DNA from: Pristiophorus japonicus | Lineage: Eukaryota | Direction: 5' to 3' | Assembly: GCF_044704955.1 (NCBI RefSeq) | Contig: NC_091981.1 | Span: 287,432,001 to 287,496,000 of the forward strand | Length of the DNA stretch: 64,000 bases | Shown: piece by piece, positions 22,453-57,217 of the stretch | How the letters are laid out: each line of letters opens with the position of its first letter | Position numbering within the stretch: position 1 is the first letter of the stretch | Program-made: the position numbers and the translations under genes | The notes under the pieces: model-generated | Databases searched by the model: none | What the model was told of the DNA's origin: nothing | Seen by the model: the letters and a program-made list of their open reading frames with translations, nothing else

Positions 22453-22468
22453 ATCGAAAAGAACACAC

Positions 22469-32700: not shown

Positions 32701-32724
32701 CAGATTCCGCTGTATTTGAATTGT

Positions 32725-33330
32725 GTTCCTTGGTGATGTTTCGCGGCAGAGCGTCCGATTGGCTGGCTGGAACCACGTGACGCGATAAAAAGGCCGGTGC
32801 CGGGAGCGGCGCGGCCATTTTGAAGCGGCGGTTGACGGTTGCGGCGAGCGCGATTGAGGGAAGGAGGCAGCGGGACAGGGCCGCCTGTGGGTAAGGATTC
32901 GGCCTTGCTAAATTCCCACCAGCTGGAGGCGGAGGGGTCGGCTTTACCTAGCAGCCCGGGGCCGAGTGCACAGCACGGGGGGGGGGAGCCAGTCCGCGGG
33001 GGGAGAGAGGTGGGCGCGCTTTCAGTTGGCAGTGCCGGCCGGGGATTGAGTTCAGCTGTAATCGAGAGGCCTATCACAGGACTCGCCGATTGGGGGGGGG
33101 GCGGGGGGGACGCTGATTGGTTGCGGCACTCAGTGCGGGGTAATTGGCTGGTTCGGAGACGAGGGCCGCGCCCCATTAGCTGTTCCGGGGACTGGGGCCG
33201 CGCCCCATTGGCTGGTCCGGAGGCCGCGCCCCATTGCTTAGTCCGGAGTCCGCGCCCCATTGGCTGGTCCGGAAGCTGGAGGCTGCACCCCATAGGCTCG
33301 TCCGGAGGCACGCCACATTGGCTGGCTTGA
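32725..33330 (+). promoter_or_regulatory. CpG-island promoter and first exon of transposase-derived gene, copy 1
   Basis: ATTGG, E-box CACGTGAC, TATA-like gataaaa, YY1 gcggccattttg, donor G|gtaagg near 32890, tandem GC-box/CCAAT units; paralogous to 48215-48900. Confidence 0.8.
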
Positions 33331-33374
33331 TGAGGGATTTTGCGAAGTGATTATCTGCACGAGTATTTTCTGCT

Positions 33375-33600
33375 GAGTGCTGAGGGAGTGCTGCACTGTC
33401 GGAGGTGCCGTCTTTCGGATGAGACGTTAAACCGAGGCCCCTCTGCTCTCTGAAGTGGATGTAAAAGATCCATTATTTTGAAGAAGAGCAGGGGAATTCT
33501 TGCCAATATTTATCCCTCAATCAACATAACCAAAAAACAAATTATCTGCTCCTATTCACATTGCTGTTTGCGGCAGCTTGCCTGTGTGCAAATTGGCTGG
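33375..33600 (+). mobile_element. Deu-domain SINE (SacSINE1-like)
   Basis: gagggagtgctgcactgtcggaggtgccgtctttcggatgagacgttaaaccgaggcc...aaattggctg. Confidence 0.8.
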
Positions 33601-33795
33601 AGAGATGGTGCAGGAGGGAGGCTTTCCAGAGTAATAATACTTGAATGGTCAAAGGCCAATTTCAAGTGGGATGAGAACGGATTGGCACTGTTGTAATGTA
33701 GGAAACGCGGCAGTCAACTGGTTTGATTTTTAGTTGGTCAGAGTTTTAAAATTTTGTTTTACCGATGGTGTCCTATAAAATGGAACTTAATCATC

Positions 33796-34116
33796 ATGTT
33801 GGGGAAGTCCAGAACCAGGGGTCACAGTCTAAGGATAAGGGGTAAGCCATTCAGGACCGAGATGAGGAGAAACTTCTTCACCCAGAGAGTGGTGAATCTG
33901 TGGAATTCTCTACCACAGAAAGTAGTTGAGGCCAATTCACTAAATATATTCAAAAGGGAGTTAGATGAAGTCCTTACTACCCGGGGGATCAAGGGTTATG
34001 GCGAGAAAGCAGGAAGGGGGTACTGAAGTTTCATGTTCAGCCATGAACTCATTGAATGGCGGTGCAGGCTAGAAGGGCTGAATGGCCTGCTCCTGCACCT
34101 ATTTTCTATGTTTCTA
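33796..34116 (+). mobile_element. CR1 3' tail
   Basis: GHSLRIRGKPFRTEMRRNFF plus tail; nearly identical to 50044-50362. Confidence 0.9.
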
Positions 34117-34388
34117 TCATACGAGCAGGAAACTGGGAACAAAAACATCGAGCAATATTCTGGATTGGTTTTAATCTGCCCTCCTGCTGAACAAAGGAAT
34201 TTGATACTGATTTGTGCTCGGGAACCCATGGATTCAATGCTTGTAATGTTGATATTAAATGAATCGTTTTATTTCTTTCCGAAATGTGAAAGTTACATCC
34301 AAGGATAGGATGATGCTCAGATTTGTGTATATTTATTTTCTATTTTAGACCGCCTTAGAATTGGCTGTCCAAACTAATAATCTCCAGT

Positions 34389-34888
34389 CATCATAGGCAG
34401 TCCCTTGAAACGAGGATGACTTGCTTCCACGCTGAAAAGGGATGAGTTCACTGGTGTTTCAATGAAGGACCTAATGTTCCAGATCCCGAACTACATCATG
34501 AAGGGTGGAAGATGCCTGTGGGTGGGTTTTAACGTTGCACTCCAGCCACCACACGGGCTTGACAGAGCTAGGTCTTGGTCCAGTGGCAAGGGTTAACCAA
34601 GACATCTTGAGACCAGCTCTGCTGCATGGACCTAGTGCGCACACATGTCGCAGTGTGGGCTGGACCGTGCTGCCCCTGGGCCCTCACCTCATCTGTGCCC
34701 CGAACTCACGCCTCTCCTGGGCCCCGATCACATCCCTCTACGAACTCTTGCCGCTCCTTCGCCCTGACCTCGCCACTCTTACTGTACCTGCCTGCACTGC
34801 AATCAGCCGTCGCCCTCCTGCAGCAGCACGCGCTGCTCCCTGCAGTGGCACGCCGCTGCACGCTGCTCCCTTTAATGGCCCTGGCCTG
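34389..34888 (-). mobile_element. RTE-derived SINE with 7-bp TSD, present only in unit 1
   Basis: TSD ctccagt at 34382-34388 and 34889-34895; empty site aatctccagtg present in paralogs near 52015 and 42712. Confidence 0.88.
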
Positions 34889-35179
34889 CTCCAGTGTAGA
34901 CCAGAGGAGCCACAGTCATGTTGCTCAGTCTGGTGTATGTTTACTAAATGATCCTCTATTTTATTTATCTTGGTGAGTAACAGCAGGACCGGTCTGCCTA
35001 TGACCTTGTTTTTTCCTAATACTTGCTACATTGATGATGAGGGGATAGTTTGAGGCCTTCTTCAGTTCAAAGAACAAGGTTATGGAAATCTCATACATCT
35101 TGTGTTTATATTTGCTGAGAGCGTTAAAAATTCTGCTTTACCCATTTCAAACTAATTTACGAATTGCCCACTTTTACAG

Positions 35180-35289
35180 AGTCAACTACAATGGAACGCA
35201 TGGCTGTGACTTTATTTCCCTGATGTGAGTCTGCAGCAGATGCTTTGCACATCTATGGACATAGAATTTAGATTTCAAAGAAATGGCAG
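35180..35289 (+). other. Predicted exon supplying the start codon (ATG 35283) of copy 1
   Basis: Acceptor cacttttacag, ends gaaATGGCAG|gtatgt; in-frame TAG upstream; conserved at 52297-52406. Confidence 0.65.
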
Positions 35290-35994
35290 GTATGTATTCA
35301 GGATCATCCTGCTACATTTCATGTTCCTGTTCAACTGAGAAACATGCTAAACCATTCAGGGTCAACCATGTGGAGAATTGTGTAGTGTGGTACAGGTCAG
35401 GTTGGTAGGATTTCTTCCCTGGGGTATTTGGGTTTCAATGGCAGTCTGGCAGCCTTTGTGGTTACTTTCCTGTCCGTCTGCAAACTACCAGATTTATTGA
35501 TGTGGTCACCAGTGCTGTTCATTTGCCTCTGTTCCTTTGTGTGTCTCCATGAGACTGCCTTGTGTAGTTCATGTCTGAAAACCACCAGTGTAGCTCCTGC
35601 AATGGTTGGACTTGTCTCATGACTGCAGCTTTGTATTGCTCCTTTGCTTCCTTCCAGTTTATTAATCGTCTCAAACCCTGTCTTTATGTCCACCCTCCAC
35701 CCTCCCCATAAAGAGCCATACAATATTTATTTTGTTAAAAGGTGCTACTTAAATGCTAGTTGTTTCTGTTGTCCCCAGGGACAGCACGGGCCAGCCCACA
35801 CTGCGATCTATGGATAGTAGGAGCATGTGTGCGCACTAGGTCCGTGCAGCAGAGCTTGGTCTCCAGTCGTCATGGTTAACCCTTGCCACTGGACCAAGAC
35901 CTAGCTCTGTCAAGCATATGTGGTGGCTGGTGTGCAACGACCACCCCACGTTAAACGAATCCATGCACAGGCATCTTCCACCGTGCTGGTCACG

Positions 35995-37497
35995 GGAATG
36001 TGGGAAGGGAGGACCTTGAGACTATCACTAGGGGGGTAGTGTTGAACAGGTTAATGGATCTCAAGGTAGACAAGTCCCCTGTTCCTGATGAAATGCATCC
36101 CAGGGTATTAAAAGAGATGGCGGAAGTTATAGCAGATGCATTCGTTATAATCTACCAAAATTCTCTGGACTCTGGGGAGGTACCAGCGGATTGGAAAGCA
36201 GCTAATGTAACGCCTCTGTTTAAAAAAAGGGGGCAGACAAAAGGCAGGTAACTATAGGCCGGTTAGTTTAACATCTGTAGTGGGGAAAATGCTTGAAGCT
36301 ATCATTAAGGAAGAAATAGCGGGACATCTAGATAGGAAAAGTGCAATCAAGCAGATGCAGCATGGATTCATGAAGGGGAAATCATGTTTAACTAATTTAC
36401 TGGAATTCTTTGAGGATATAACGAGCATGGTGGATAGAGGTGTATCGATGGATGTGGTGTATTTAGATTTCCAAAAGGCATTCGATAAGGTGCCACACAA
36501 AAGGTTACTGTAGAAGATAAAGGTACGCGGAGTCAGGAAATGTATTAGCATGGATCGAGAATTGGCTGGCTAACAGAAAGCAGACAGTCGGGTCCTTTTG
36601 GGTCCTTTTCAGGTTGGAAATCGGTGGTTAGTGGTGTGCCACAGGGATCGGTGCTGGGACCACAACTGTTTACAATGTACATAGATGACCTGGAAGAGGG
36701 GACAGAGTGCAGTGTAACAAAATTTGCAGATGACACAAAGATTAGTGGGAAAGCGGGTTGTGCAGAGGACACAGAGAGGCTGCAAAGAGATTTAGATAGA
36801 TTAAGCGAATGGGCTAAGGTTTGGCAGATGGAATACAATGTCAGAAAATGTGAGGTCATCCACCTTGGGGGAAAAAAACAGTAAAAGGGAATATTATTTG
36901 AATGGGGAGAAATTACAACATGCTGCGGTGCAGCGGGACCTGGGGGTCCTTGTGCATGAAACTCTTTTTTTGTTTGAACTCAAAAAGTTAATTTGCAGGT
37001 GCAGCAGGTAATCAGGAAGGCGAATGGAATGTTGGCCTTCATTGCAAGAGGGATGGAGTACAAAAGCAGGGAGGTCCTGCTGCAACTGTACAGGGTATTG
37101 GTGAGGCCGCACCTGGAGTACTGCGTGCAGTTTTGGTCACCTTACTTAAGGAAGGATATACTAGCTTTGGAGGGGTTCAGAGACGATTCACTAGGCTGAT
37201 TCCGGAGATGAGGGGATTACCTTATGATGATAGATTGAGTAGACTGGGTCTTTACTCGTTGGAGTTCAGAAGGGTGAGGGTTGATTTTATAGAAACATTT
37301 AAAATAATGAAAGGGATAGACAAAATAGAAGCAGAGGTTGTTTCCGCTGGTCGGGGAGACTAGAACTAGGGGGCACATCCTCAAAATACGGGGGAGCCAA
37401 TTTAAAACCGAGTTGAGAAGGAATTTCTTCTCCCAGAGGGTTGTGAATCTTTGGAATTCTCTGCCCAAGGAAGCAGTTGAGGCTAGCTCATTGAATT
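35995..37497 (+). mobile_element. CR1 LINE, intronic, unit 1 only
   Basis: Fragmented RT ORFs 36000-37682. Confidence 0.92.
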
Positions 37498-37499
37498 TG

Positions 37500-37889
37500 A
37501 GTGAAGGTGGGGAGGGTTGGAGGCCATCGAGAGATTTGAGAACAGGGATGATTTTAAAATCAAGGCATTGTCAGAGCGAAAGCCAGTGTCGGTCAGAGAG
37601 CATGTGTGATGGGTGCCCTAAGTGGGGGTTCCGATATGACCCCGGGTGCGAGTTTGGATTCGGCCAGCAGAGTTTTGGATGAGTTGAAGTTTAGAAGGTG
37701 GAAGATGGGAGGCCGGCTAGGGGAGCACCGGAACAGTAGATTCGAGAGTTAACGAAGCCATTTAGGTTTTCCACAGCAAATGAGCTGAGGCAGGAGCGGA
37801 GACAGGCAATGTTCATCTCGGTGTCAAATAGGACACAAGGTTGCCAATCGTCTGGTTTAGCCTCCAACAGTGGTCAGGGCTGCAACAAG
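37500..37889 (-). mobile_element. Old L2-like fragment, the hAT insertion target; paralog at 52640-53013
   Basis: gagttttggatgagttgaagtttagaaggtggaagatgggagg shared between both units immediately left of the TIR. Confidence 0.55.
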
Positions 37890-37897
37890 GGCTAGGG

Positions 37898-37913
37898 CAG
37901 GGGTTCTCAACCT
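37898..37913 (+). mobile_element. Left TIR of Buster/Charlie hAT element, copy 1
   Basis: caggggttctcaacct preceded by 8-bp ggcTAggg with central TA. Confidence 0.85.
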
Positions 37914-38298
37914 CAGTACCCCCTAGGACAGGGGGTACTGAGGGAATGATCAGCCATGATCTTATTGAATGGTGGTGCAGGCTCGAAGGGCCGAATGGCC
38001 TACTCCTGCACCTATTTTCTTTGTTTCAACCAGGGATTTACTTATGTGGCTTGATGTCATAAAAATCTCAATGCTGTGAAGCGCCTTGGGACATTTCACT
38101 ACATTAATGGTACTATATAAATACAAGTTGCCGTACTACGTGCTGACTGCGCAGAAATTAACATTCTAATGTTATGTAATACATTCTTGCTTCAAGTGAA
38201 GGGTCGTAGAACTGTTTCAGCAGGAGCAAGATAAATGATAAAACAGGAAAAGTTGTTGTAAATACCAGATATGGATAAATGTTTGATTTGACCATCAG

Positions 38299-40187
38299 CC
38301 TCAGAACAACAACACCCACAGAGCGATGAGACAGAACTTCCTTCAAGTTCAACCTCAAGGGCTGAAGAGTGGCGAGAAGGTGGAAGTGTGCGCAAAAAAA
38401 GTAAAACGGCAAAAGTAAGACGATACCAAGACAGCTACTTGAATTTTGGTTTTATTTGTAATAAAAGTGGATACACACCTCAACCGCAGTGTGTAATTTG
38501 TGCACAAGTACTGGTCAATGAAGCTTTGAAACCCTCCAAATTACGGAGACATTTAATTACCAAGCATGAAATGTACAAGGACAAACACCGTGCCTTTTTT
38601 GAGCGAAAGGCTAAGGAACTGCCTGGGAGTACTGAAGTAGTAATGAAATCCACACCTACCGCTGATAAAAAGCTTGTCTCATCCTACTTAGTGGCGCAGC
38701 AGATTGCGAAAGCAAAAAGACCCTATACGGTTGCTGAGGAGCTGATAATGCCGTGTGCCATTGCAATCGTAAAGGAAATGTTTGGAGAGCAGGAGGCCCG
38801 GGAACTGGAAAAAATACCAATGTCAGATGACACTATCAAACGGCGGATTGGTTCAATGTCAGAAGACATAGTTTTGCAGTGCATCGATCGGCTGCGTGTC
38901 AGTGACTTTGCTCTACAGCTTGATGTGACCACAGACTTTTCTAAAAGGTCCCATTTACTCGTCTATGTTCGCTATGTGTGGAATAAGGAAATAAAGGAAG
39001 ACTTTTTGTTTAGCAAAGAGCTCAAGATAACAAAGTCAGAGGATATTTTCACATTGTTGGATGATTTCATGACTTCAGCAGAAATCAGCTGGACAAACTG
39101 CATTGGGGTGTGCACTGATGGGGCTGCAGCAATGACTGGAAAGCATTCGAGTGTTGTGCAAAAGATCAAAGCTGCTTCACCTGGCGCTATTTGGACACAT
39201 TGCTTTTTACACCGAGAGGCCCTTGCTGCGAAAGATATTGAGCCGGGTCTTCACGGTGTTCTCAACACTGCAGTGACTCTCGTTAATTTTATCAAGTCCA
39301 GAGCAAGGAACTCCAGGTGTTTTGATGCACTTTGTGAGGAGGTGGGTGCAGAGCACAATTCCTTGCTCATGCATACAAAGGCGAGGTGGCTCTCTCGAGG
39401 CAGAATGCTTACCCGTATATTTCATCTCAGGGGAGATGTTCACATTTTCTTAGCTGACAAGAAACCTGAACTTGCCGAGGTGCTGAAAGATGACGTGTGG
39501 CTGGCTAAACTGGCTTACCTCGCAGACATGTTCAGTGAAATGAATAAGCTAAATAAAGCTATGCAAGTTGAGAACACTCATTTTTTTGCCCAGCGTGGAA
39601 GAATTGACGCATTCAAAGGGAAACTGCAAGTGTGGAAGGTTCTTATCTCTGGGGGCACGGCAGATATGTTTGAGCTCTTGCATTCTTTCATTCAAGAAAG
39701 AAAAGTTAACTTTGACGCCATCAAACCACAGCTGGTAGCGCATCTTTCTGGTCTGCTCAACAAATTCAATACTTATTTCCCAGAACTCACGACGGAACAA
39801 TCTGCTGCATACCTGTGGGCTACAAACCCCTTTAGTGAGAATATTGAAGCGAAACTCCTAACCTCTGTCCCACCAAAGTTATTGGAAGAGCTCATTGACA
39901 TTTCATCCGACAGCTTCCTCAGAACCAAGTTCAGTGAGTTGCCGCTGGAGACATTTTGGTGTGAATGCTCTGACGAATACAGGACTGCTTCTTCTGCAGC
40001 ACTGAAAGTGTTGCTCCCATTTAGTACAACCTACTTCTGCGATGTTGGAGTTTCAGCAATGACGTTGATGAAAACTAAGAACCGAGGCAGGGTGAACATT
40101 GACCATGAAATGCGCGTGTGCTTGTCGAAGATACCTCCGCGCCTTGACAGAATTGTTGCTCAGCATCAGCAACTGGTTTCATATTAA
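38299..40187 (+). CDS. hAT (Buster/Charlie) transposase-derived BED-finger protein, ZBED5/ZBED8/FAM200/SCAND3-like, copy 1 main coding exon
   Basis: Uninterrupted ORF (track 38388-40187, 599 aa; open back to 38292) with BED finger C-x2-C...H-x4-H, FALQLD, CTDGA, HCFLH, RWLSRG, hAT dimerisation domain; 5' boundary is a predicted acceptor. Confidence 0.9.
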
Positions 40188-40264
40188 GTACGTAAAACAA
40201 ATATATTAAACATACGTTTATTTAGATATCTACAGAGAAAGTTCAATACAACAGAGCAGTGTAG

Positions 40265-42030
40265 TGATTTGGGTTTTTAAAAAAAAAGTGTGTGACCAGG
40301 AAGGGACAGAGTTTAATGGTAGCAGTGCAGCAGAGAATAAAGTCAAAGCAGGGAATAGTGGTAAAACAATTAAATTGAAGACTCTTTATCTGAATGCACG
40401 GAGCATTTGTAACAAGATAGACAAACTAGTGGCACAAATAGGAGATAAATGGGTTTGGTCAATTACAGAGACATGGTTGCAAAGTGACCAAGGTTGGGAA
40501 CTAAATGTTCCAGAGTACTTGACGTTTCGAAAAGACAGGCAGACTGCTAAATGAGGGGGGCGCGGTAGCCCTGATAACAAAGGATGACAAGGACAGCAGA
40601 GGGAATGGATCTCGGCTCGGAAGATCTGGAAGTAGAATCTGCATGGGTGGAGATGAGGAATAACAAGGGGGCAGAAAACACTGGTGGAACTAGTATATAG
40701 GTCCCCTAACAGTAGACTGTTGGACAGAATATTAATCAAGAAATAATAAGATCTTGTAACAAAGGTAATGCAATAATCGTGGGAGACTTTAATCTTCATA
40801 TGGATTGGACAAATCAAATTGGCAAAGGTAGTCTGGATGACGAGTTCATGGAATGCATTCGGGAAAATTTCCTAGAACAGTACATCATGGAACCAACAAG
40901 GGAACAGGCTATTTTAGATCTTATATTGTGTAATGAGACAGGGCTAATTAACAATCTCTTAGTGAAGGATCCTCTGGGGGCAGAGTGATCATAATACCAT
41001 AGAACTACTTTTGAGAATAACTTACTGATGCCTGAAACTAGATCTTTCAAACTTTAAATAAAGCCAATTACATAGGTATAAAGGGTGAGTTGGCTAAGTT
41101 GGAAAAATAGGTATGGCAGTAGATAAGCAGTGGCTAGCATTTTAAGAAATATTTCATCATTCTCAATAAAAATACATTCCATTGAGAAACAAAAACTCCA
41201 CAGGAAAAGTGATCCATCCATGGCTAACTAAAGAAGTTGAGGAGGATAGCATTAGATTGAAAGAAGAAGCTTATAATGTTGTGAAGAATAGGGTTAGGGT
41301 AAGCCTGAGAATTGGGAAAGGTTTCAGAAACCAGCAAAGGATGACCCAAAATTTGATTTAAAAAAAAGGAAAAAATAGACTTTGAGCGAAAACTAGCAAG
41401 AAATTTAAAAACTGATTGCAAGAGCTTCTACAAATATGTGAAAAGGAAGAGAGTAGCAAAAGTAAACATTGGTCCCTTAGAGGCTGAGGCAGGAGAAATT
41501 ATGGGGAATAAGGAAATGGCAGAAACATTAACTAAATATTTTCTATCTGTCTTCACAGTAGTAGATGCAAAAAACATACCTAAAATGGTGGGGAACCAAG
41601 GGTCTAATGAGGGTGAGGAACTTGATGTAATTCATATAAGTAGAGAAAAAGTATTAGACAAACTAATGGGACTAAAAGCTGATAAATCCCCTGGACCTGA
41701 CGGCCTACCTCCTCGGGTTCTAAAAGAGGTGGCTGCAGAGATAATGGATACATTGGTTTTGATCTTTCAAAATTCCCTACATTCTAGAACGGTCCCAGCA
41801 GATTGGAAGGTAGCAAATGTAACACCGCTATTCAAGAAAAGAGCGAGAGAGAAAACGGGGAACTACAGGCCAGTCAGCCTGACATCAGAAAAATGTCAGA
41901 ATCCATTGTTAAGGAAGTGGTATCATGGCACTTAAAAAATCATAACATGATTAGGCAGTCGTCATGGTTTTATGAAAGAGAAATCGTGTTTGACAAATTT
42001 AAGAGTTTTGTGGGGATGTAACTAGCAGGG
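40265..42030 (+). mobile_element. CR1 LINE including endonuclease region, decayed
   Basis: LYLNARSI, ITETWL, GDFN, ILDLILCN, KSPGPDG motifs. Confidence 0.9.
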
Positions 42031-42074
42031 GCCATATGGCCTACTCCTGCTCCTATTTCTTATGTTCTTATTAA

Positions 42075-42632
42075 CTCTGAAGACACTGGTTAGGCCACAG
42101 CAAGAGTACTGCATGCAGTTCTGGTCACCACATTACAGGAAAGATGTAATTGCACGAGAGAGGGTACAGAGGAGATTTATGAGGATGTTGCCTGGACGGA
42201 GAATTTTAGCTATGAGGAAAGATTGGATAGGTTGGGGTTGTTTTTTTTTGGAACAGAGGAGGCTGAGGGAAGACCTTTCTGAGGTATATAAAATTAGGAG
42301 GGGCCTTGATATGAAGGACTTATTTCCCTTAGAGGGGTCAACAACCAGGCGGCATAGATTTAAAGTAATTGGTAAGAGGTTTAGAGGGGATATGAGGGAA
42401 AATGTTTTCACCCAGAGGGTGATGGGGGGTCTGAAACTCGCTGCCTGAAATGGTGGTAAGAGGCAGAAACTCTCACCACATTTATTAAGTATTTGGATGT
42501 GCACTTGAAGTGCCGTAACCTACAATACTACGGACTAAGAGCTGGAAAGTGGGATTCGGCTGGATAGCTCTTTGTCGGCTGACGTGGACACGATGGGCCA
42601 AGATGGCCTCCTTCCCTGCTGTAAATTTCTAC
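42075..42632 (+). mobile_element. CR1 3' fragment, different subfamily
   Basis: ORF 42062-42448 plus tail. Confidence 0.85.
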
Positions 42633-42634
42633 GA

Positions 42635-42922
42635 TAGGATGATGCTCAGAGTTGTGTATCTTTACTTTCTATTTTAGATGTCATTAGAATTGGCTGTCCA
42701 CACTAATAATCTCCAGTGCAGACCAGAGGAGCCGTATCCATGTCACTCAGTCTGGTCTGCCTTTACTCAAAGGTTCGCTATTTTATGTTTCTCGTGCGAG
42801 CCACAGCAGGTCAGGTCTGCCTGTGACCTTGTCGCTTCCTAATACTTGCTCGATTGATGATGAGAGGATAGTTTGAGGCCGCCTTCTGATCAAAGAACAA
42901 GGTTATGGAAACCTCATACATC
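42635..42922 (+). repeat. Third, more diverged copy of the gene's non-coding exon/intron block
   Basis: gataggatgatgctcaga...ttttag...gaaacctcatacatc aligns to 34304-34388 plus 34896-35100 and to 51937-52210. Confidence 0.85.
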
Positions 42923-43334
42923 CTGCTGCATTGCGGAGGTAATGGGAGCTTTTAAATTCAGGTTTTCACCATTTGTTTAAAAGTTCCAATAACATATCGG
43001 AGTGCAGTCAGAATTGAAGGAGCGCAGAGTTCTCAGACGATTTTAGGGCTGGAGGCTGGGAGGGATCAGGAGGGATGAGACTTTTACATTCAAGGTGATA
43101 GTGGAATGGGACTTTGTGATTTATGGGGCAATAATCAATGACATGGAGCTCCTCACTACCTGTAGATTGTAAACTAATTCCTGTGCAATAAACAAGGTTG
43201 GTGCTTTGAAATGGGAGGCTAGTTCTTCTTCTGTGGCTTTGAGGCAGCTTGCTTTGGGAGCTTGAATCCTAAACATGAAGATGTAAATACCCAGGGATTT
43301 GTGGACTGATGTATTTTTTGTTCTTCCCCTGCAG

Positions 43335-43680
43335 GTATACCAATTGCAATACTGTCGGCAGGATAGCTCAATCCTGGAGCTGAGACTGACTGTGAACGTC
43401 CCCTCCCCCCACCATCCGATTTGGGTCACAAACTGTCGTATTGTGCAATGAAGTGGAAGACTGTGGTGATCAATCTGAAGCTCTACATCTAGTCATGGAT
43501 CCAGTTATGATGGGCAAGAAACGAGAGGCATTCAGGCAACGTAGAGGGGAGCCTGGGGATGTGTTCTGGTCAGTGAGAGGAAGCCGTGGACTCTTCAACC
43601 TGGACAGAAGGCACCTGAGCTGTATAGTACAGTTCGGAATACGGAAAATGCATTTCTGTAATACTGCAAATCCTGAGTAG
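43335..43680 (+). other. Duplicated downstream exon-like block, copy 1
   Basis: Strong acceptor tttttgttcttcccctgcag; paralog at 56867-57217; reading frame broken. Confidence 0.6.
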
Positions 43681-44894
43681 GACAAAGGGCACGTGTTCAA
43701 ACAGTAAATTTAAGACTGATGCTCTTCCCCTCGTGATCAATATTGGGGGAAAGTCGTCGTCATCATCATCATCATCATAGGCAGTCCCTCAGAATCGAGG
43801 AAGACCTGCTTCCACTCCTAAAGTGAGTTCTTTGGTGGCCCTCCTGTATGGATCAGAGGCATGGGGGAAAGTAGGCATGGACTAAATACAGAGTTTGAGA
43901 GTTCAGAGCCCACCACGGGCAGTTTGAGATTCTGAATTCAGTTTAACGCTGGTCGATACAAAAACAGGTATTGGTAAAGGTGACCTTGAAGCTGTTGGAT
44001 TGTTGTAAAACCCAACTGGTTCACAAATGTCCTTCAGGGAAGGAAAACCTGCTGTCCTTATGGGTCCAACCTGCATGTGACTCCAGTCCCACACCAATGT
44101 GGCTGAGGTGGCCTCGCAAGCCATTCAATTGTATCAAACTGCGAGCAGCAGTCCAGGGAAAGGCCCACCATCTATGAGCAATAAATGCCAGTGATGCCCA
44201 TAACCTGAGAGTGAAGGAAGATACATGGAGTGGACTCTGAAATAGAGCAGTGAAGGTTTAAAAATCCCTGCAACAGCTAAACCGTTAGATGCAGGATGGA
44301 GGTGGACTTTCTCGATGAATGGGCTGAACAGCCTTCCTCATCTGTGCAGCATTTTCTCCTCGAGCTGAGTTTCTGTGGAGGCAATTTATTGGAAGCAAAC
44401 GTTCGAGCTGCACATGGCAGATTTAACTTGGATACATTGAACTTTTCCATAATCCGTTTGCACCTTCCTCAAGTATTTACTTGCGAGTATTTACAATTTA
44501 CTATCATTGTCCATTTGAGGTTGTATAATTGTGATGTTTTACTTTGTATTTTTTAAACAAGCACACATTTAAATGCTACACTAACTTAATTGATTTAAAT
44601 AAATTATTGTGTTTTACATATTCCCTGTTTACAGCAGCTTCAGTCTGTGGCAATGTTTATGCTCCACACAAGTCTCCTCCCACCTTGTTTTATCTCATCC
44701 TATCAACATACCGCTTTCACTCTGTACTTGTCTTGCTTGCCCTCTTGTTTCTATTCACACTAGTGACTCATTCCCTCCTCATCACCTATCTTGCTCTCTC
44801 TGGGCCATCGGTCACTTTCTTTAATTCCACTACAGTTTGGCTTCTCACTCTGCAAGAGGTTATTACACAAAATTAGGACATGGGATTGGGAGTA

Positions 44895-45183
44895 AGGCCC
44901 AGGGGCAGCACGGGCCAGCCCACACTGCGATATGTGTGCATACTAGGTCAGTGCAGCAGAGCTGGTCTCCAGTTAGTCTTGGGTAATCCTTGCCACTGGA
45001 CCAAGACCTAGCTCTGTCAAGCCCGTGTGGTGGCTGGTGTGCAACGGTCACCACACGTTAAAAAAATCCAAGCACAGGCATCTTCCACCCTCCAAGATGT
45101 AGTTCGGGATCTGGAATATTAGATCCTTCATTGAAATATGGAAGAAGCCATCCTCGTTTCGAGGGACTGCCTATGAAGGATGA
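44895..45183 (+). mobile_element. RTE-derived SINE
   Basis: 5'UTR block, decayed ORF start (M*FGIWNIRSFIE) and gagggactgcctatga tail. Confidence 0.8.
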
Positions 45184-47654: not shown

Positions 47655-48163
47655 GGTTGGATCCTGCAAATCCCCTGGGATAATCAACGTCGGTGTTCTT
47701 GATCAGGCCAACATCGAAACACTGACCACATTCAACCAGCTCCATTGGGTGGGCCACATCGTCCACAAGCCCGACACGAGAGCAAGCGCTCTACTCGGAA
47801 CTCCTACACGGCCAGCGAGCCCTAGGTGGGCAGAGGAAACGTTACAAGGACACCCTCAAAGCCTCCCTGATAAAGTGCAACATCCCCACCGACACCTGGG
47901 AGTCCCTGGCCAAAGACCGCTCTAAGTGGAGGAAGTGCATCCGGGAGGACGCTGAGCACCTCGAGTCTCATCGCCGAGAGCATGCAGAAAACAAGCGGAA
48001 GGAGCGTGTGGCAAACCAGACTCCCCACCCACCTTTTCCCTCAATGACTATCTGTCCTACCTGTGACAGGGACTGTGGTTCTAGTATTGGACTGTTCAGC
48101 CACTTTTACAGTGAAGTAAGTCTTCCTCGAGTCCGAGGGACTGCCTATGGTGATGATGACGAT
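47655..48163 (+). mobile_element. RTE LINE 3' fragment
   Basis: aaggacaccctcaaagcctccctg region and (GAT)n tail. Confidence 0.85.
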
Positions 48164-48214
48164 GCCGTGGCTGGAGGACCTCCGTCCCTTGTGCTGCGAT
48201 GCGAACCATCTTGC

Positions 48215-48900
48215 AGCTTCCGCAGCTCCTTGGTTATGTTTCGCGGCAGAGCGTCCGAGTGGCTGGCTGGCACCACGTGACGCGGTATAAATGTCGGTGT
48301 CGGGAGCGGCGCGGCCATTTTGAAACGGCGGTTGAAGATGGCGGTGAGGTGAGCGAGTGAGGCAGCCGGTCAGGGCCGCCTGTGGGGGAGGATTCGGCCT
48401 TAGTGAGTCTCCCCCCGGTCCGAGGTTGTAGGGCGGAGGGGGGCGGAGGCTTCACCTTGCAGCCCGGGTCCGAGTGTACAATATTGGGGAGGGCCGGCGG
48501 GCCGCGGGCAGGGAATGGCGGCGGAGGGGGGCGTCTCCCCGCGGGCTCGAGCGCGCTTTCATTTGGCAGCGCCGGCCGGGGCTCGAGCTGGGCTGTAATC
48601 GGGAGACACGCAGCGCCGTGGTTAGCGGCTGGGGCCGCGCCCCATTGGCTGTGGGGGGGTGGGGGGCAGCGGTCGCGCCCTATTGGCTGGTCCGTCAGAT
48701 GGCATTGCGCTCCATTGGTTGGTCCTTGGGCTGGGGCCGCGCCCCATTGGCTGGTCCGGGAGCTGGGACCGCGCCCAATTGGCTGGGATGGGTCCGCGCC
48801 CCATTGGATGGTCCGTGGGTTGGGGCCGCGCTCCATTGGCTGGTCGAGTGCTGGGGCCGCGCCCCATTGGCGAAGCTAAGGTTGTCTTCCCGCTGGTGCA
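48215..48900 (+). promoter_or_regulatory. CpG-island promoter and first exon of transposase-derived gene, copy 2
   Basis: Same order as copy 1: CACGTGAC, TATAAA, YY1 gcggccattttg and aagatggcgg, gtgag donors, ggggccgcgccccattggctgg array. Confidence 0.8.
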
Positions 48901-49334
48901 GTATGCGAATGCGAGCAGACTGGCAGCAGCCCGGATGCGGCATTTTGCACGGTGATTGTCCGCGCGAACATTTCTGTGGCTTTCTGCGTTAGCGCGCGGC
49001 GTACAGGGGCCCTCGGCAGCGCAGCGCGGGACACACTTTGCTCAGCTCGGGGGACTGGGGCCGTGCTGACCGGCCGGCCAGGCAGAGAGAATCGTCCGGG
49101 GGGGGGAGAGGAAGGAGAGAGAGGGTCAGGAACGGGGGTATAGCCAGCTCTACCAATTCTTATCCAGTATCTTCTCTATCTCCTCCTTCACTGCCGATGG
49201 CAACATCTTCCTTGGTGAAGACAGATGCAAAGTACTGATCCTGTGCCTCAGCCATCCTGCTGCCTCCATGCATAGGTCTGTCTCCTTTTTTTGTCCCTAA
49301 TCAGCTCCAACCCTCCTCTTACTATCTGCCTACT

Positions 49335-50362
49335 GGGACTAGTGGGGTACCGCAAGGTTCTGTGCTGGGGCCCCAGCTGTTTACATTGTACATTAATAAT
49401 TTAGACGAGGGGATTAAATGTAGTATCTCCAAATTTGCGGATGACACTAAGTTGGGTGGCAGTGTGAGCTGCGAGGAGGATGCTATGAGGCTGCAGAGTG
49501 ACTTGGATAGGTTAGGTGAGTGGGCAAATGAATGGCAGATGAAGTATAATGTGAATAAATGTGAGGTTATCCACTTTGGTGGTTAAAAACAGAGAGACAG
49601 ACTATTATCTGAACGGTGACAGATTAGGAAAAGGGAAGGTGCAACGAGACCTGGGTGTCATGGTACATCAGTCATTGAAGGTTGGCATGCAGGTACAGCA
49701 GGCGGTTAAGAAAGCAAATGGCATGTTGGCCTTCATAGCGAGGGGATTTGAGTACAGGGGCAGGGAGGTGTTACTACAGTTGTACAGGGCCTTGGTGAGG
49801 CCACACCTGGAGTAGTGTGTACAGTTTTGGTCTCCTAACTTGAGGAAGGACATTCTTGCTATTGAGGGAGTGCAGCGAAGATTCACCAGACTGATTCATG
49901 GGATGGTGGGACTGACCTATCAAGAAAGACTGGATCAACTGGGCTTGTATTCACTGGAGTTCAGAAGAATGAGAGGGGACCTCATAGAAACGTTTAAAAT
50001 TCTGACGGGGTTAGACAGGTTAGATGCAGGAAGAATGTTCCCAATGTTGGGGAAGTCCAGAACCAGGGGTCACAGTCTAAGGATAAAGGGTAAGCCATTT
50101 AGGACCGAGATGAGGAGAAACTTCTTCACCCAGAGTGGTGAACCTGTGGAATTCTCTACCACAGAAAGTAGTTTAGGCCAATTCACTAAATATATTCAAA
50201 AGGGAGTTAGATGAAGTCCTTACTACTCGGGGGATCAAGGGGTATGGCGAGAAAGCAGGAAGGGGGTACTGAAGTTTCATGTTCAGCCATGAACTCATTG
50301 AATGGCGGTGCAGGCTAGAAGGGCTGAATGGCCTGCTCCTGCACCTATTTTCTATGTTTCTA
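49335..50362 (+). mobile_element. CR1 LINE 3' ~1 kb
   Basis: ORFs 49362-50214 plus tail. Confidence 0.92.
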
Positions 50363-50794
50363 ATCCTGCCCTTTTTTGAGCCAGGTCTCTGTTTTTGCCC
50401 TGGCATCATATTCCCATTTGGCTATTTGCACCTGCAGCTCACCAACCTTGTTCACTGTGCTTCGTTCGTTCACATACATACGCTGTAAGCCTATCTTGAA
50501 GTTGGAAACTTTTTCCACCCAGAGTATGGTGAGGCTCTGGAACTCACTGCCTGAAAGGGTGATAGAGGCAGAAAATCTCAGCACAATTTAAAAAGTACTT
50601 GAGGTGCTGTAACTTACAGAGCTATGGACCAAGAGCTGGAATGTGGACTGGGTTGGTGGCACAGGCATGATGGGTCGAATGGCCTTCTTCTGCGCTCTAA
50701 GTTTCTGTGATTCTATAAAAACCTCATCCATTTTGCTGGTTTGTTTTTTTAAGTTGGTCAGGCCTTTTAAAATTCTATATTACTGATAGCATCC

Positions 50795-51730
50795 TGAATA
50801 TAATGAGTGTAACGTAGCCAAGTTTGCTGACGATACAAAGATGGGAGGAAAAGCAATGTGTGAGGAGAACACACAAAATCTGCAAAAGGACATAGACAGG
50901 CTAAGTGAGTGGGCAAAAATTTGGCAGATGGAGTATAATGTTGGAAAGTGTGAGGTCATGCACTTAGGCAGAAAAAAATCAAAGAGCAAGTTATTTAAAT
51001 GGAGAAAGATTGCAAAAAGCTACAGTACAGTGGGACCTGCAGGTACTTGTGCATGAAACACAAAAGTTTAGTATGCAGGTACAGTAAGTGATCAGGAATG
51101 CCAATGGAATCTTGGCCTTTATTGCAAAGGGGATGGAGTATAAAAGCAGTGAAGTCTTGCTACAGCTGTACAGGGTATTGGTGAGGCCACACTTGGAATA
51201 CTGCGTGCAGTTTCAGTTTCCATATTTACGAAAGGATCTGCTTGCTTTGGAGGCAGTTCAGAGAAGGTTCACTAGGTTGATTCCAGAGATGAGGGGGTTG
51301 ACTTATGAGGAAAGGTTGAGTAGGTTGGGCCTCTACTCAATGGAATTCAGAAGAATGAGAGGTGATCTTATCGAAACATAATAAGATTATGAGGGGGCTT
51401 GATAAGGATGCAGAGAGGATGTTTCCACTGATGGGGGAGGTTAGAACTAGAGGGCATAATTTTAGAATAAAGGGCTGCCCATTTAAAACTGAGATGAAGA
51501 GAAATTTCTTCTGAGGGTTGAGGATCTGTGAAATTCGCTGCCTCAGAGAGCTGTGGCAGCTGGGTCATTGAATAAATTTAAGACAGAAATAAGACAGTTT
51601 CTTAACCGATAAGGGAATAAGGGGAAGTGGAACTGAATTCATGATCAGATCAGCCATGATCTTATTGAATGGCGGAGCAGGCTCGAGGGGCCATATGACC
51701 TACTCCTGCTCCTATTTCTTATGTTCTTAT
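50795..51730 (+). mobile_element. CR1 LINE 3' fragment
   Basis: KFADDTK region through tail ttcttatgttcttat. Confidence 0.9.
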
Positions 51731-52296
51731 ATGGAACTGAATCATCTATATGAGCGGGAATCTGGGAACAAAAGCATCTAGCAATATTCCGGATTGATTT
51801 TAATCTGCCTTCCTAGTTGCTGGACAAAGGAATTTGATGCTGATTTGTGCTTGGGAATCCATGGATTCAATGCTTGTAATGTTGATATTAAATGAATCGT
51901 TTTATTTCTTTACGAAATGTGAGAGTTCCATCCAAGGATAGGGTGATGCTCAGAGTTGTGTATCCTAATTTTCTATTTAGACCGCCTTAGAATTGGTTGT
52001 CTACACTAATAATCTCCAGTGTGGACCAGAGGAGCCACAGTCATGTTGCTCAGTCTGGTGTGTGTTTACTAAATGATCCTCTATTTTATTTATCTTCTGC
52101 GAGTCGCAGCAGGACCTTGTCTCTTCCTAATACTTGCTACATTGATGATGACGGGATAGTTTGAGGCCTTCTTCAGTTTAAAGAACAAGTTTACGGAAAC
52201 CTCATACATCTTGTTGCTGTGTTTATAGTTGCTGAGAGCATTAAAAATTCTGTTTTACCCATTTAAATCTAATTTACGAATTGCCCACTTTTACAG

Positions 52297-52406
52297 AGTC
52301 AAGTACAATGGAATGCACTGCTGTGACTTTATTTCGCTGATGTGAGTTTGCAGCATATGTTTTACACATCTGTGGACATAGAATTTGGATTTCAAAGAAA
52401 TGGCAG
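52297..52406 (+). other. Predicted exon supplying the start codon (ATG 52400) of copy 2
   Basis: Acceptor cacttttacag; ends gaaATGGCAG|gtgtgt. Confidence 0.65.
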
Positions 52407-53013
52407 GTGTGTATTCAGAATCATCCTGCTACATTTCATGTTCCTGTACAACTGAGAAACATGCTAAACCATTCAGGGTCAACCATGTGGAGAATTATGT
52501 AGTGTGGTACAGGTTGGGTTGGTAGGATTCCTTCCCTGCGGTATTTGGGTTTCAATGGCAGTCTGGCAGCCTTTGTGGTTACTTTCCTGTCAGTCTGCAA
52601 ATCACCAGATTTATTAATGTCACCAGTGCTGTTCATTCAAAGGTGGGGAGGGTTGGCGGCCATGGAGGGATTTGAGAATAGGGATAATTTTATCAAGGCA
52701 TTGTCAGAGCGGAAGCCAGTGTAGGTCAGTGAGCATGTGTGATGGGTGAATGGCCCGGGGTGGGAGTTCGGGGGGGCTGGGGCCCCCCCGGGTGGGAGTT
52801 AGGATACGAACGGCAGAATTTTGGATGAGTTGAAGTTTAGAAGGTGGGAAATGGGAGGCTGGCTAGGAGAGCATTGGAATAGTAGATTCAAGAAGTAATG
52901 AAATCAGGTTTTCCACAGCAGATGAACTGAGGCAGAGGCAGAGGCGGAGACGGGCAATGTTCATCTCGGTGTCAAATAGCGAACAAGGTTGCCAACAGTC
53001 TGGTTTAGCCTGC

Positions 53014-53158
53014 AACAGGGGCTAGGCCAGGGGTTCTCAACAGGGGCTAGGGCAGGGGTTCTCAACAGGGGCTAGGGCAGAGGTTCTCAACAGGGGTTCC
53101 CAACAGGGGCTAGGGCAGGGGTTCACAACAGGGGCTAGGGCAGGGGTTCTCAACAGGG
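53014..53158 (+). repeat. 25-bp tandem array built from the hAT TSD plus left TIR
   Basis: aacaggggctagggcaggggttctc x5 plus one partial unit. Confidence 0.92.
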
Positions 53159-53392
53159 AACGGTGAGGTGTCGAGGCGTCCACCAAAAGTAAGCATAGAA
53201 TGTGTAGGAAGGAAAGTAAATCTTCGTCCGTGTTTATTACGTACCGAGTGTGCAGAAGTCTGAGGTTATGTAATACATTCTTGCTTTATGTTAAGGGTCG
53301 TAGAACTGTTTCAGCAGGAGCAAGATAAATGACAAAACAGGAAAAGTTGTTGTAAATACCAGATATGGATAAATGTTTGATTTGACCATCAG

Positions 53393-55269
53393 CCTCAGAA
53401 CAACAACACCCACAGAGCGATGAGACAGAACTTCCTTCAAGTTCAATCTCAAGGATTGAAGAATGCCGAGGAGGTGGAGGTGTGCGCAAAAAGCTTAAAG
53501 TTTCAAGAACAAGGAGATACCAAGACAGCTACTTGAATTTTGGTTTTATTTGTAATAGAAGTGGATACACACCTCAACCGCAGTGTGTAATTTGTGCACA
53601 AGTACTGGCCAATGAATCGATGAAACCCTCCAAATTACAGAGACATTTAATTACCAAGCATCAAATGTACAAGGACAAACACCGTGCCTTTTTTGAGCGA
53701 AAGGCTAAGGAACTGCCGGGAACTACTGAAGTAGTAACGAAATCCACACCTACCGCTGATAAAAAGCTTGTCTCATCCTACTTAGTGGCGCAGCAGATTG
53801 CGAAAGCAAAAAGACCCTATACGGTTGCTGAGGAGCTGATAATGCCGTGTGCCATTGCAATCGTAAGGGAAATGTTTGGAGAACAGGAGGCCCGGGAACT
53901 GGAAAAAATACCAATGTCAGACGACACTATCAAACGGCGGATTGGTTCAATGTCAGAAGACATAGTTTTGCAGTGCATCGATCGGCTGCGTGACAATGAC
54001 TTTGCTCTACAGCTTGATGTGACCACAGACTTTTCTAAAAGGTCGCATTTACTCGTCTATGTTCGCTATGTGTGGAATAAGGAAATAAAGGAAGACTTTT
54101 TGTTTAGCAAAGAGCTCAAGATAACAAAGTCAGAAGATATTTTCACATTGTTGGATGATTTCATGACTTCAGCAGAAATCAGCTGGACAAACTGCATTGG
54201 GGTGTGCACTGATGGGGCTGCAGCAATGACTGGAAAGCATTCGAGTGTTGTGCAAAAGATCAAAGCCACTTCACCTGGCGCTATTTGGACACATTGCTTT
54301 TTACACCGAGAGGCCCTTGCTGCGAAAGATATTGAGCCGGGTCTTCACGGTGTTCTCAACACTGCAGTGACTCTTGTTAATTTTATCAAGTCCAGAGCAA
54401 GGAACTCCAGGTGTTTTGTTGCACTTTGTGAGGAGGTGGGTGCAGAGCACAATTCCTTGCTCATGCATACAAAGGCGAGGTGGCTCTCTCGAGGCAGAAT
54501 GCTTACCCGTATATTTCATCTCAGGGGAGATGTTCACATTTTCTTAGCTGACAAGAAACCTGAACTTGCCGAGGTGCTGAAAGATGACGTGTGGCTGGCT
54601 AAACTGGCTTACCTCGCAGACATGTTCAGTGAAATGAATAAGCTAAATAAAGCTATGCAAGTTGAGAACACTCATTTTTTTGCCCAGCGTGGAAGAATTG
54701 ACGCATTCAAAGGGAAACTGCAAGTGTGGAAGGTTCTTATCTCTGGGGGCACTGCAGATATGTTTGAGCTCCTGCATTCTTTCATTCAAGAAAGAAAAGT
54801 TAACTTTGACGCCATCAAACCACAGCTGGTAGCGCATCTTTCTGGTCTGCTCAACAAATTCAATAATTATTTCCCAGAACTCACGACGGAACAATCTGCT
54901 GCATACCTGTGGGCTACAAACCCCTTTAGTGAGAATATTGAAGCGAAACTCCTAACCTCTGTCCCACCAAAGTTATTGGAAGAGCTCATTGACATTTCAT
55001 CCGACAGCTTCCTCAGAACCAAGTTCAGTGAATTGCCGCTGGAGACATTTTGGTGTGAATGCTCCGACGAATACAGGACTGCTTCTTCTGCAGCACTGAA
55101 AGTGTTGCTCCCATTTAGTACAACCTACTTCTGCGATGTTGGAGTTTCAGCAATGACGTTGATGAAAACTAAGAACAGGGTGAACATCGACCATGAAATG
55201 CGCGTGTGCTTGTCGAAGATACCTCCTCGCCTTGACAGAATTGTTGCTCAGCACCAGGTTTCACATTAA
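53393..55269 (+). CDS. hAT (Buster/Charlie) transposase-derived BED-finger protein, copy 2 main coding exon
   Basis: Uninterrupted ORF (track 53482-55269, 595 aa; open back to 53386); same motifs as copy 1; 5' boundary is a predicted acceptor. Confidence 0.9.
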
Positions 55270-55402
55270 GTGGGTAAAACAAAAATATTAAAGATATAAA
55301 CTTAACTGCATAACACATTTTTTACAGAAAAAAAGCTTGTATTGTGTTACATTGTTGTTGATCGAGTTTTTATAACACGGGAGAAGGGGGTCTCATGCAG
55401 CA

Positions 55403-55418
55403 AGGTTGAGATCCCCTG
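55403..55418 (-). mobile_element. Right TIR of the hAT element, copy 2
   Basis: aggttgagatcccctg (reverse complement caggggatctcaacct) followed by ggcTAtgt, a 6/8 match to the left TSD. Confidence 0.85.
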
Positions 55419-55497
55419 GGCTATGTATTGACATGGCAGCAACAATGGCACTTAATGTTACCAATTAATATTGCGTGATGATCTTAATTCATCACAT

Positions 55498-56760
55498 TAA
55501 GAACATAAGAAGTAGGAGCAGGAGTAGGCCATACGGCCCCTCGAGCCTGTTCCGCCATTCGATAAGATCATATCTGATCATGGACTCAGCTCCACTTCCC
55601 TGCCCGCTCCCCAAAACCCCTTATTCCCTTATCGTTTAAGAAACTGTCTGAATAAATTTAAGACAGAAACAATGTCCCAGCTTCCACAGCTCTCTGAGGC
55701 AGCGAATTCCATAGATTTACAACCCTGAGAAGAAATTTCTCCTCATCTCTGTTTTAAATGGCCGACCCCTTATTCTAAGATTATGGGCCCAAGTTTCGGC
55801 ATCTGGTGAAAACGGCGCACCTCCGAGACTTACGTGACCTGCCTGGGCTCGAAGGTGCACTGGAATACACTGCAGCAATTCTCCGGTCCTACTGGACCGT
55901 GGCGTGGTGCAGCGTAGTCTCCTTGGGGCGGAGCAAGCCGATCGCAGCCTGCAGGGGGGCGGGGCTAAGGATCATGCCGCCTTGTCAGTGCCGGCAGCGT
56001 TGCGCAGATGCGTTGGAGCATGCGCGCCTGCGCAATGGCTCGGGGAAGCGTGGATGGGTAGGGGGGCGCGGGGGGTGCGTGGCTACCGGATTAGCCAACC
56101 CCCAACCCCGATAACTTTTATCTTGTACCGTAACCTTTTATGTGGCACCTTGTCAAATGCCTGCTGGGAGTCCAAATACACCATATCCACTGGTTTCCCT
56201 TTATCCACCCTGTTCGTTACATCCACAAAGCACTCCAGCAAATTTGTCAAACATGACATCCCCTTAATAAATCCATGCTGGCTCTGCCTGACCTAATTTT
56301 GCTGCTTCTTTTAATAATGGACTTCCAACACATAACCACAGATGTTAGGCTAACTGATCTATAGTTTCCTGCTTTTTGTCTTCCTCCTTTCTTAAATAGG
56401 CGTGTTACATTTGCAGTTTTACAATCTGCTGGGACCTCCCCAGAATCCAGGGAATTTTGGTAAATTACAACCAAACCAATGCATCCACAATACCTGTCGC
56501 TACTTCTCTTAAGACCCTAGGATGTAAGCCATCAGGTCCAGGGGATTTTATCTGCCTTTAGTCCCAATATCTTACTGAGTACCACCTTAGTGATTGTGAT
56601 TGTGTCAAGTTCCTCCCCTTTCCCCCCCCCCCCCCCTCCCCCCGACTATCCACTGTCAGAATATTGTTAGTGTCCTCTACCGTAAAGACTGATAGAAATT
56701 CTGAACAAATATTTTGTGCCATCTTCATGTTCCCATTACTAATTCCCTGGTCTCGTCCTC
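55498..56760 (-). mobile_element. CR1 fragments around a GC-rich MITE-like piece (~55785-56090)
   Basis: CR1 tail at 55498-55783; RT fragment ORF 56247-56474. Confidence 0.75.
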
Positions 56761-56866
56761 TAAGGGATGGAGGGAGGGAGGCGGGTGGAGTCCAGTGCGT
56801 GCATGCGCAGAAGGACACACAAAAAACTTGAAAATTATCACTTTGTTTATTTTTCTTCCCTTGCAG

Positions 56867-57217
56867 GTATATCAATTGAAATACTGTCGGCAGGATAGCT
56901 CACTACTGGAGCTAAGACTGACTGTGAACGTCCCCTCCCCCACCATCCAATTTGGGTCATAAACTGTTGTGTTGTGTAATGAAGTGGAAGACTGTCGTGA
57001 TCAATCTGAAGCTCTACATCTAGTCATGGATCAAGTTGTGGTGGCAAGAAACGAGAGGCATTCAGACAGTGTAGAGGGGAGCTTGGGGCTGTGTCCTAGT
57101 ACCAGTGGGAGGAAGGCGTGGACTCTTCAACCAGGAAAGGAGGCACCTAACATCACCTGAGGTGTACAGTTAAAAGGAATGGAAATTGCATTTCTGTAAT
57201 ACTGCAAATCCTGAGTA
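56867..57217 (+). other. Duplicated downstream exon-like block, copy 2
   Basis: Acceptor tttttcttcccttgcag; paralog of 43335-43680; internal TAA. Confidence 0.6.

Follow-up and report, generated by a model that had tools for sequence, protein, structure and literature searches.

Among the mammalian genes derived from Buster-type hAT transposases are ZBED5 (Buster1), ZBED7-9 (Buster2-4, corresponding to ZMYM6, ZBED8 and SCAND3) and FAM200A/B. Repeated domestication and duplication of ZBED genes is described in PMC3606216, and the main text of a survey of host–transposase fusions, in tetrapods only, finds a transposon-supplied acceptor at the start of the open reading frame (ORF) in 8 of 9 cases (bioRxiv 10.1101/2020.05.07.082677). 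Here we describe a 64,000-nucleotide stretch (the window, G000:C5:287432001-287496000; positions are window coordinates unless a contig is given) of the 5.9-Gb assembly of the Japanese sawshark, Pristiophorus japonicus, in which two long transposase frames belong to a tandem triplet of units, called C, A and B in upstream-to-downstream order. With a probability of roughly 0.7, A and B are host genes that arose by transposase capture and encode a non-cutting, oligomer-forming nuclear protein under purifying selection in its RNase-H/insertion core; domestication as such is highly probable. Transposase capture is an already known phenomenon, and A and B are a further case of it, in a cartilaginous fish.

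The window contains no ORF longer than A (38292-40187, 631 codons) and B (53386-55269, 627 codons), both of which are of Buster type, as the first-pass annotation had proposed. A homology search returned 744 matches, the named ones Buster-type, and Hermes was the best match in both sequence and fold searches; a Pfam scan of the A and B proteins gave nothing above cut-off. UniRef records of P. japonicus labelled FAM200-like match both proteins (P0003 is B; P0124 is A, first two residues aside), which are thus already auto-annotated. The frames are open throughout but are not self-contained: the native ATG (A, 38271; B, 53365) is followed by an in-frame TGA at codon 7, so that neither frame has a start of its own. 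In A this dead start occupies 38271-38291 on the forward strand, the strand of all stranded window features given below, and several relic copies of the family have CGA in place of the TGA.

The annotated protein start, MA-ASEQ, instead corresponds to a host exon 2 (ATG GCA G, then a donor GT) joined to a CATCAG acceptor that precedes CC. Exon 2 of A (35180-35289, 5′ edge predicted from an acceptor) ends AAAGAA-ATG-GCA-G before the GT, with the ATG at 35283; its block is unique to the cluster locus, and P0124 starts MA-ASEQ. The transposase exon of A runs from the acceptor to the stop codon (38299-40187, 631-residue product), with a donor GT directly after the stop and a non-coding 3′ exon at 43335-43689 (3′ end approximate). 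Unit B repeats this arrangement, with exon 2 at 52297-52406 (ATG 52400, donor GT 52407, 5′ edge predicted), a transposase exon at 53393-55269 (627-residue product, donor after the stop) and a non-coding 3′ exon at 56868-57219. A GT also stands immediately after the stop codon in C. Both A and B need a splice to a host exon to acquire a start codon. Ten relics extend over the N terminus, and the acceptor can be recognised in 5 of them, so it is ancestral and was brought by the element. A short upstream ORF lies within exon 2 of all three units (A, 35189-35224) and ends before the main ATG.

Where the first-pass annotation had seen a tandem pair, there are three units. Genome matches place C upstream of the window at about G000:C5 287391100-287414100 (L003, L023-L025), where its promoter precedes the first window position by about 40.9 kb and its element by 24.0-22.1 kb; the 264 kb surrounding the window showed no fourth unit. 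A promoter search of the genome returned 3 matches, units C, A and B. Of 10 matches to the exon-2 block, all but one fall within the cluster, the exception being 53 nt long. Each unit has its own CpG island, exon-2 block and 3′ exon, and the units differ in their insertions of CR1 and RTE, which are long interspersed nuclear elements (LINEs), in agreement with the earlier description. The CpG island and promoter of A (32500-33350; 3 genome copies, first exon predicted) contains what we take to be a CACGTGAC box, a GCCATTTT motif and a CCAAT/GC-box array; that of B (48000-49000) is paralogous to those of A and C. A partial additional exon-2 block lies downstream of the A ORF (42633-42929), is found in C too and is missing from B; in C, the exon-2 block is present as five repeats upstream of the ORF and one downstream.

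A and B are both preceded by the same L2-like flank (37504-37897 in A), which ends in the target site GGCTAGGG (37890-37897), and by the same left terminal inverted repeat (TIR), CAGGGGTTCTCAAC (37898-37911 in A). In B the left end, target site plus TIR, has been amplified into a short tandem array (53013-53158). The right TIR is lost from A and is kept, together with a second target copy, in B only (55405-55426, TIR 55405-55418), where the degenerate copy GGCTATGT agrees with GGCTAGGG at 6 of 8 bases. The shared insertion site proposed for the two units is thereby upheld by flank, target site and left TIR, but the target-site duplication is only half shown, because the second copy exists in B only and is followed by only 16 nt of old flank; L2 sequence does not resume after the right end of B, and the empty site cannot be reconstructed. 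The shared site bears out segmental duplication as the origin of the second copy. Close by, 64 nt (55435-55498) are identical, in reverse, to a stretch about 19 kb past the window end, and are likely the edge of a recent insertion beside the right end of B.

Splicing is recorded in the genome itself by retrocopies. A search with the 3′ exon of C gave 26 matches, comprising the three units and 23 dispersed matches, of which 22 were examined as loci (the omitted one is the second piece of a split copy). The stop codon is joined to the 3′ exon without an intron in 6 of these 22, two of the six being one duplicated insertion; nearby alternative donors were used in two dispersed loci, and one retrocopy (L044/L120) has exon 2 joined to the acceptor and runs without a break from exon 2 through the 5′ part of the transposase exon to the 3′ exon. 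Intron-less retrocopies thus show both joins for unit C. The six stop-joined copies resemble C at 94-98% identity, against 81-89% for A or B. The 3′ exon of C terminates in a CR1-type tail, at which 17 of the 22 loci end, as stringent 3′-end recognition would predict, and this ending fits LINE-tail-dependent copying. Such retroposition is described in PMC3747384 for pairs of short interspersed nuclear elements (SINEs) and LINEs; in place of a tRNA-derived SINE, what was mobilised here is a gene of transposase origin in the form of its spliced mRNA. More diverged 3′-exon copies at L020/L137 (contig C6), L054/L132 (contig C14) and L059/L138 (contig C2), 75-89% identical and a poor fit to all three units, are possibly older retrocopies of an ancestral unit.

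Transcription of B was followed in 4 of 10 listed runs, compared with unit B at 80% likeness: X8 and X10, whose library type is unrecorded, and X1 and X5, which are RNA by guess. In a search of runs, none of those containing the sequence is catalogued as RNA, which speaks neither for nor against expression. The bins holding exon 2, ORF and 3′ exon are covered in all four, and adjacent unique intronic bins are far lower. Among the 32 contig pieces listed of about 135,000, one each in X10, X1 and X5 begins exactly at the acceptor CAG (53390), with 26-81 extra letters upstream, and the X10 piece shows 0 differences from B in 261 nt. Evidence for transcription and splicing comprises the C joins carried by retrocopies and the contigs that start at the B acceptor; the promoter-to-exon-2 join is predicted. 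Allele-depth subtraction suggests an A-type contig in X8, with none seen in X10, and expression of A is likely.

The protein structure model (predicted local distance difference test score 89.4, predicted template modelling score 0.77, residues 1-36 mostly disordered) has Hermes as its best structural match. In a profile alignment D211, D276 and position 584 fall on the three acidic motifs of Hermes, which are catalytic. Both aspartates are kept in A and B, and the catalytic glutamate E584 is changed to D in both; this position, aligned with the SERTFS glutamate of Hermes, is E in 117 of 118 homologs, and F587, which is F in 118 of 118, is V in A and B. Of 111 highly conserved columns, A deviates from the consensus at 10, among its changes E584D, F587V, E212V and G426V. 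E212V, E363K and G426V, which alter residues that most homologs conserve, are common to C, A and B. Judged by these residues, A and B have likely lost cutting activity. The BED ligands C67, C70, H87 and H92 are intact in A and B. In C the BED region is frameshifted and the finger lost; D211, D276, E584, CxxH and W366 are retained.

Compared with active hATs of the Hermes/TcBuster type, A and B share the fold, both aspartate positions, CxxH, the tryptophan, the BED finger, short TIRs and an 8-bp nnnTAnnn target site, which is the rule for Buster elements (B has GGCTAGGG/GGCTATGT, A the left end only, and a sister copy in E2F6, described below, CCGTAGAC/CTGTAGAC). They differ by the dead start, the E-to-D change of the third catalytic residue and incomplete TIRs, and the C, A and B copies spread by tandem duplication and retroposition, not by transposition. 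What would mark an active hAT, namely an intact DDE triad, an own start and dispersed young copies with distinct target sites, was not found for A or B; dispersed genome matches are old relics or retrocopies.

These relics provide a neutral yardstick. Frameshifts and stops number 0 in A and 0 in B versus 12.5 per kb in 18 relic elements of the same age (17,935 nt projected on A, retrocopies left out), which has a Poisson probability of 5e-11, or 7e-6 at half the relic rate. A DNA tree (20 rows, each of at least 600 nt) has the shape of a star, in which the relics, the E2F6 copy, a further intact copy on contig C28 and the C-A-B lineage all branch from one node region; on this tree, the units, the two other intact copies and the relics stem from one burst. 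The ratio of nonsynonymous to synonymous substitution rates (dN/dS), by simple counting against the column-majority codon of the relics rather than a branch model, is 0.42 for A, 0.40 for B, 0.39 for C, 0.37 for the E2F6 copy and 0.33 for the C28 copy, compared with 0.79 for pooled relics (Fisher p versus relics 7e-4 for A and 3e-4 for B; 2e-6 to 7e-4 across the four tested). Within A, the ratio is 0.93 in the linker, 0.91 in the BED region, 0.75 in residues 101-205, 0.26 in residues 206-500 (relics, 0.67) and 0.40 at the C terminus; the BED region of B gives 0.63 and that of relics 0.92. By these rates, constraint would lie in residues 206-500, not in the BED finger. The description of the units as BED-finger genes stands as far as the intact ligands go, but does not extend to constraint on the finger.

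The ORFs of A and B are 96.5% identical overall and 98.8% in the core, where 13 of 1110 nt and 4 of 156 four-fold sites differ. Divergence is 11% across the opening 179 nt of the frame and 6.6-12.5% in six flanking blocks; flanks are 87-93% identical in aligned blocks and 69% over the whole promoter region. In the core, C lies no further from A and B than these do from each other; on the 5′ side of the core it has diverged and carries frameshifts, and beyond about 39770 on the 3′ side it has diverged again. Between A and B, residues 1-130 hold 18 replacement and 6 synonymous changes, and the remainder 7 and 12. The homogenised cores are most likely the product of gene conversion, to judge from this pattern. 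We dropped ORF identity as a date for the duplication, the core being homogenised far above flank identity, and rejected an assembly artefact, the flanks being divergent and carrying different insertions.

Two unlinked loci hold further intact copies of the family. One (G000:C7:58427848-58432919; exon 408-582, element 1365-3693) lies in the last intron of E2F6 and is a complete element that retains both TIRs and its target sites; the native start is frameshifted and the frame spans 641 codons. It is in phase with the same acceptor, and its DDE triad and BED finger are intact. UniRef P0161 is an 867-residue E2F6–transposase isoform with E2F_TDP, CC-MB and transposase domains. A 238-residue parental E2F6 isoform is also present, with its last exon downstream of the element, and a Heptranchias perlo record in the cluster of P0161 has the short E2F6 form only. 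This copy shows the hallmarks of a host–transposase fusion, an in-frame host domain, an element splice site and a retained parental isoform, with the junction as predicted by annotation. The best non-self match to the full-length element is 83% over its length, and the source family therefore looks extinct.

The third intact lineage lies on the minus strand at G000:C28:14364540-14369515. Its start ATG is changed to ACG, its BED finger is damaged, and about 590 codons are open from an internal ATG; the protein collection has no entry for the exact ORF, and neither a host exon nor a host transcript was identified. Pieces with its difference count are present in X8 and X10. A quick protein tree groups the E2F6 and C28 copies and the DNA tree with relics does not; because the trees disagree, the independence of the two captures rests on their different insertion sites. 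An ambitious extrapolation, which we consider unlikely as a whole, is that the splice-ready 5′ end of one extinct Buster family led to three or more captures within a single shark lineage (C-A-B, the E2F6 fusion and the BED-less C28 copy), that the products co-assemble by their conserved cores, that interchangeable BED fingers thereby steer the E2F6 repressor to new sites of transposon origin, and that conversion keeps the cluster core uniform.

Outside P. japonicus records, near and shorter protein searches found no close relative, and none from any other named shark or ray; the best proteins reach 57-58% identity at full length and 71% across 146 residues. This absence is weak evidence, because only cluster representatives are listed, and the E2F6 fusion itself sat behind a short representative. 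Two other organisms (organism A and organism B) each yielded a contig series 91-95% identical to unit B in which every gap measures 0 or 6 nt and none shifts the frame, in tables that show neither stop codons nor synteny. Each also has a second series, whose identity of about 85-89% is the distance expected of the E2F6 copy. The breadth is narrower than the chondrichthyan one first envisaged, since only these contigs, and no close protein of another named shark or ray, came up.

Orthology with the mammalian SCAND3, ZMYM6 and FAM200 genes was rejected, as A and B are separate in a FastTree phylogeny from P0305 (SCAND3-type), P0330 (ZMYM6-type) and P0346 (FAM200-like), rows typed by architecture or length and among which ZBED5 and ZBED8 themselves were not identified. 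What A and B share with the mammalian genes is a Buster hAT transposase in a single-exon coding block under a host promoter. Identity is about 40% to the SCAND3-type and about 37% to the ZMYM6-type protein, and A and B come from a burst whose relics remain in the sawshark genome. PMC3606216 reports a conserved DDE triad in ZBEDs, as opposed to DDD in A and B. With the tetrapod fusions (bioRxiv 10.1101/2020.05.07.082677, main text) the sawshark copies share the capture route, and young fusions there keep the parental isoform, as E2F6 does here. A and B gain only two host codons and are captures without a host domain, and the sawshark keeps one family intact at three unlinked sites of one genome.

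A plausible history begins with one element of a single burst, which would have inserted into an intron of a transcript that started at a CpG promoter and coded for little or nothing. ATG-GCA-G would have come from exon 2, in phase with the CATCAG acceptor at codons 8-9, and the donor right after the stop would set the last junction at the stop codon, an arrangement that would escape nonsense-mediated decay. Tandem duplication would then have produced C-A-B, with GC-biased gene conversion holding the cores near-identical while the basic linker and BED finger drifted in A and B and decayed in C. The most likely present role, by analogy and at about even odds, would be a FAM200/ZBED8-type chromatin or transcription scaffold, acting via transposase-fold protein contacts more than BED sequence binding. 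Taken together, ratios below 1, transcription and splicing and the lack of disablements support the independent domestication with local expansion put forward at the outset, here a lineage-restricted one with concerted evolution that is likely functional.

Several observations weigh against capture under selection. Neither a function nor a protein product was observed for A or B, the exon 2–acceptor joint is absent among the joints listed (322 more are unlisted) in libraries whose type is unrecorded or guessed, and all retrocopies with joins among the 22 loci come from C or a C-like parent and none from the other two units. For A, the case for expression is the allele-depth subtraction in X8, and nothing was seen in X10. 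Overall constraint is moderate, and in a class-matched test residues 1-205 are unconstrained (dN/dS 1.2-1.4, p 0.8-1). AT-to-GC transitions account for the whole of the low ratio in A and B (residues 206-end, 0.28, p 2e-4), and the opposite class, GC-to-AT, gives 1.1 on small counts (6 synonymous, 14 replacement); in the E2F6 and C28 copies the GC-to-AT class is depleted (0.27 and 0.30). Within the converted core, A and B count as one lineage.

One could accordingly read the units as transcribed but functionless relics, exonised by chance, in which conversion among three copies and GC bias keep the frames open and mimic a low dN/dS. Conversion is evident from the four-fold sites of the core set against 7-12% in the flanks, synonymous changes run AT-to-GC over GC-to-AT at 35:7 in A versus 85:118 in relics, and the N-terminal third is near-neutral in rate. 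We nevertheless regard this as improbable: conversion has no means of purging a disablement that all copies share and takes no account of codon position, yet in the AT-to-GC class replacements are scarce compared with synonymous changes; the unconverted 5′ part of C has several frameshifts (10 by BLAST gaps) where A and B have none; and the ABC-type pieces of two other organisms are free of frameshift gaps. The changed catalytic residue in a conserved oligomer-forming fold would also suit a dominant-negative repressor, one that enters and disables the oligomers of active Buster transposases or occludes the transposon ends, and the C transcript reaches the germline, as its retrocopies attest. 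With the source family seemingly extinct there is no evident current target, however, and constraint spans an old lineage common to other organisms, which leaves this role similarly doubtful.

A domesticated active nuclease or recombinase, in which C or a C-A-B hetero-oligomer cuts DNA for the host and A and B are DNA-binding partners, would draw on the catalytic residues kept in C and on constraint being strongest in the RNase-H region. It is quite unlikely given that C has no BED finger, that E212V, E363K and G426V occur in all three units at mostly conserved positions, and that the C-terminal part of C has a dN/dS of 0.88. Full-length open frames at 96.5% identity might finally be taken for young active transposon copies or an assembly duplication, a case we consider barely credible: the native start is dead, the insertion site is single and shared, the right TIR of A is lost, flanks are 7-13% diverged with different insertions, and among 57 genome matches (107 of 147 candidates unscored) there are no near-identical dispersed DNA copies with distinct target sites, the pattern that the first-pass annotation had set against domestication. 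Copy search, flank divergence and shared site rule out this case, unless young copies hide among the unscored candidates. Capture by a host transcript followed by purifying selection on the core remains the reading we prefer.

Elsewhere in the window, broken gypsy-like long terminal repeat elements lie at 4294-11403 and 25462-29889, their longest open piece being 494 codons (26738-28222), the third-longest frame of the window. A CpG-rich stretch at 21500-22500 has no match elsewhere in the 264 kb and no link was found from it to C, A or B. In literature listings, which mostly exclude subscription journals, we found no printed description of the A or B proteins, nothing relevant on a shark Buster domestication or E2F6 fusion and no survey of transposase capture in cartilaginous fish. 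In the accessible parts, 'shark' occurs 0 times in PMC3606216, as do 'shark' and 'chondrichth' in PMC10027918, and 'E2F' 0 times in the main text of bioRxiv 10.1101/2020.05.07.082677, whose supplements may list an E2F case.

Transposase capture, surveyed in tetrapods, is hereby extended to cartilaginous fish, and the record is unusually full: relics serve as a neutral clock, retrocopies fossilise splice joins and three intact lineages descend from one burst. Repeated capture of one Buster family and the E2F6 fusion heighten the interest of the case. E2F6 is described in PMC8195999 as a Polycomb-associated repressor of germline genes, and the E2F6–transposase isoform ties this repressor to a transposon DNA-binding module. 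The pattern of constraint in A and B suggests that selection can favour the transposase core over the DNA-binding finger, which makes the role of FAM200/ZBED8-type proteins more testable.

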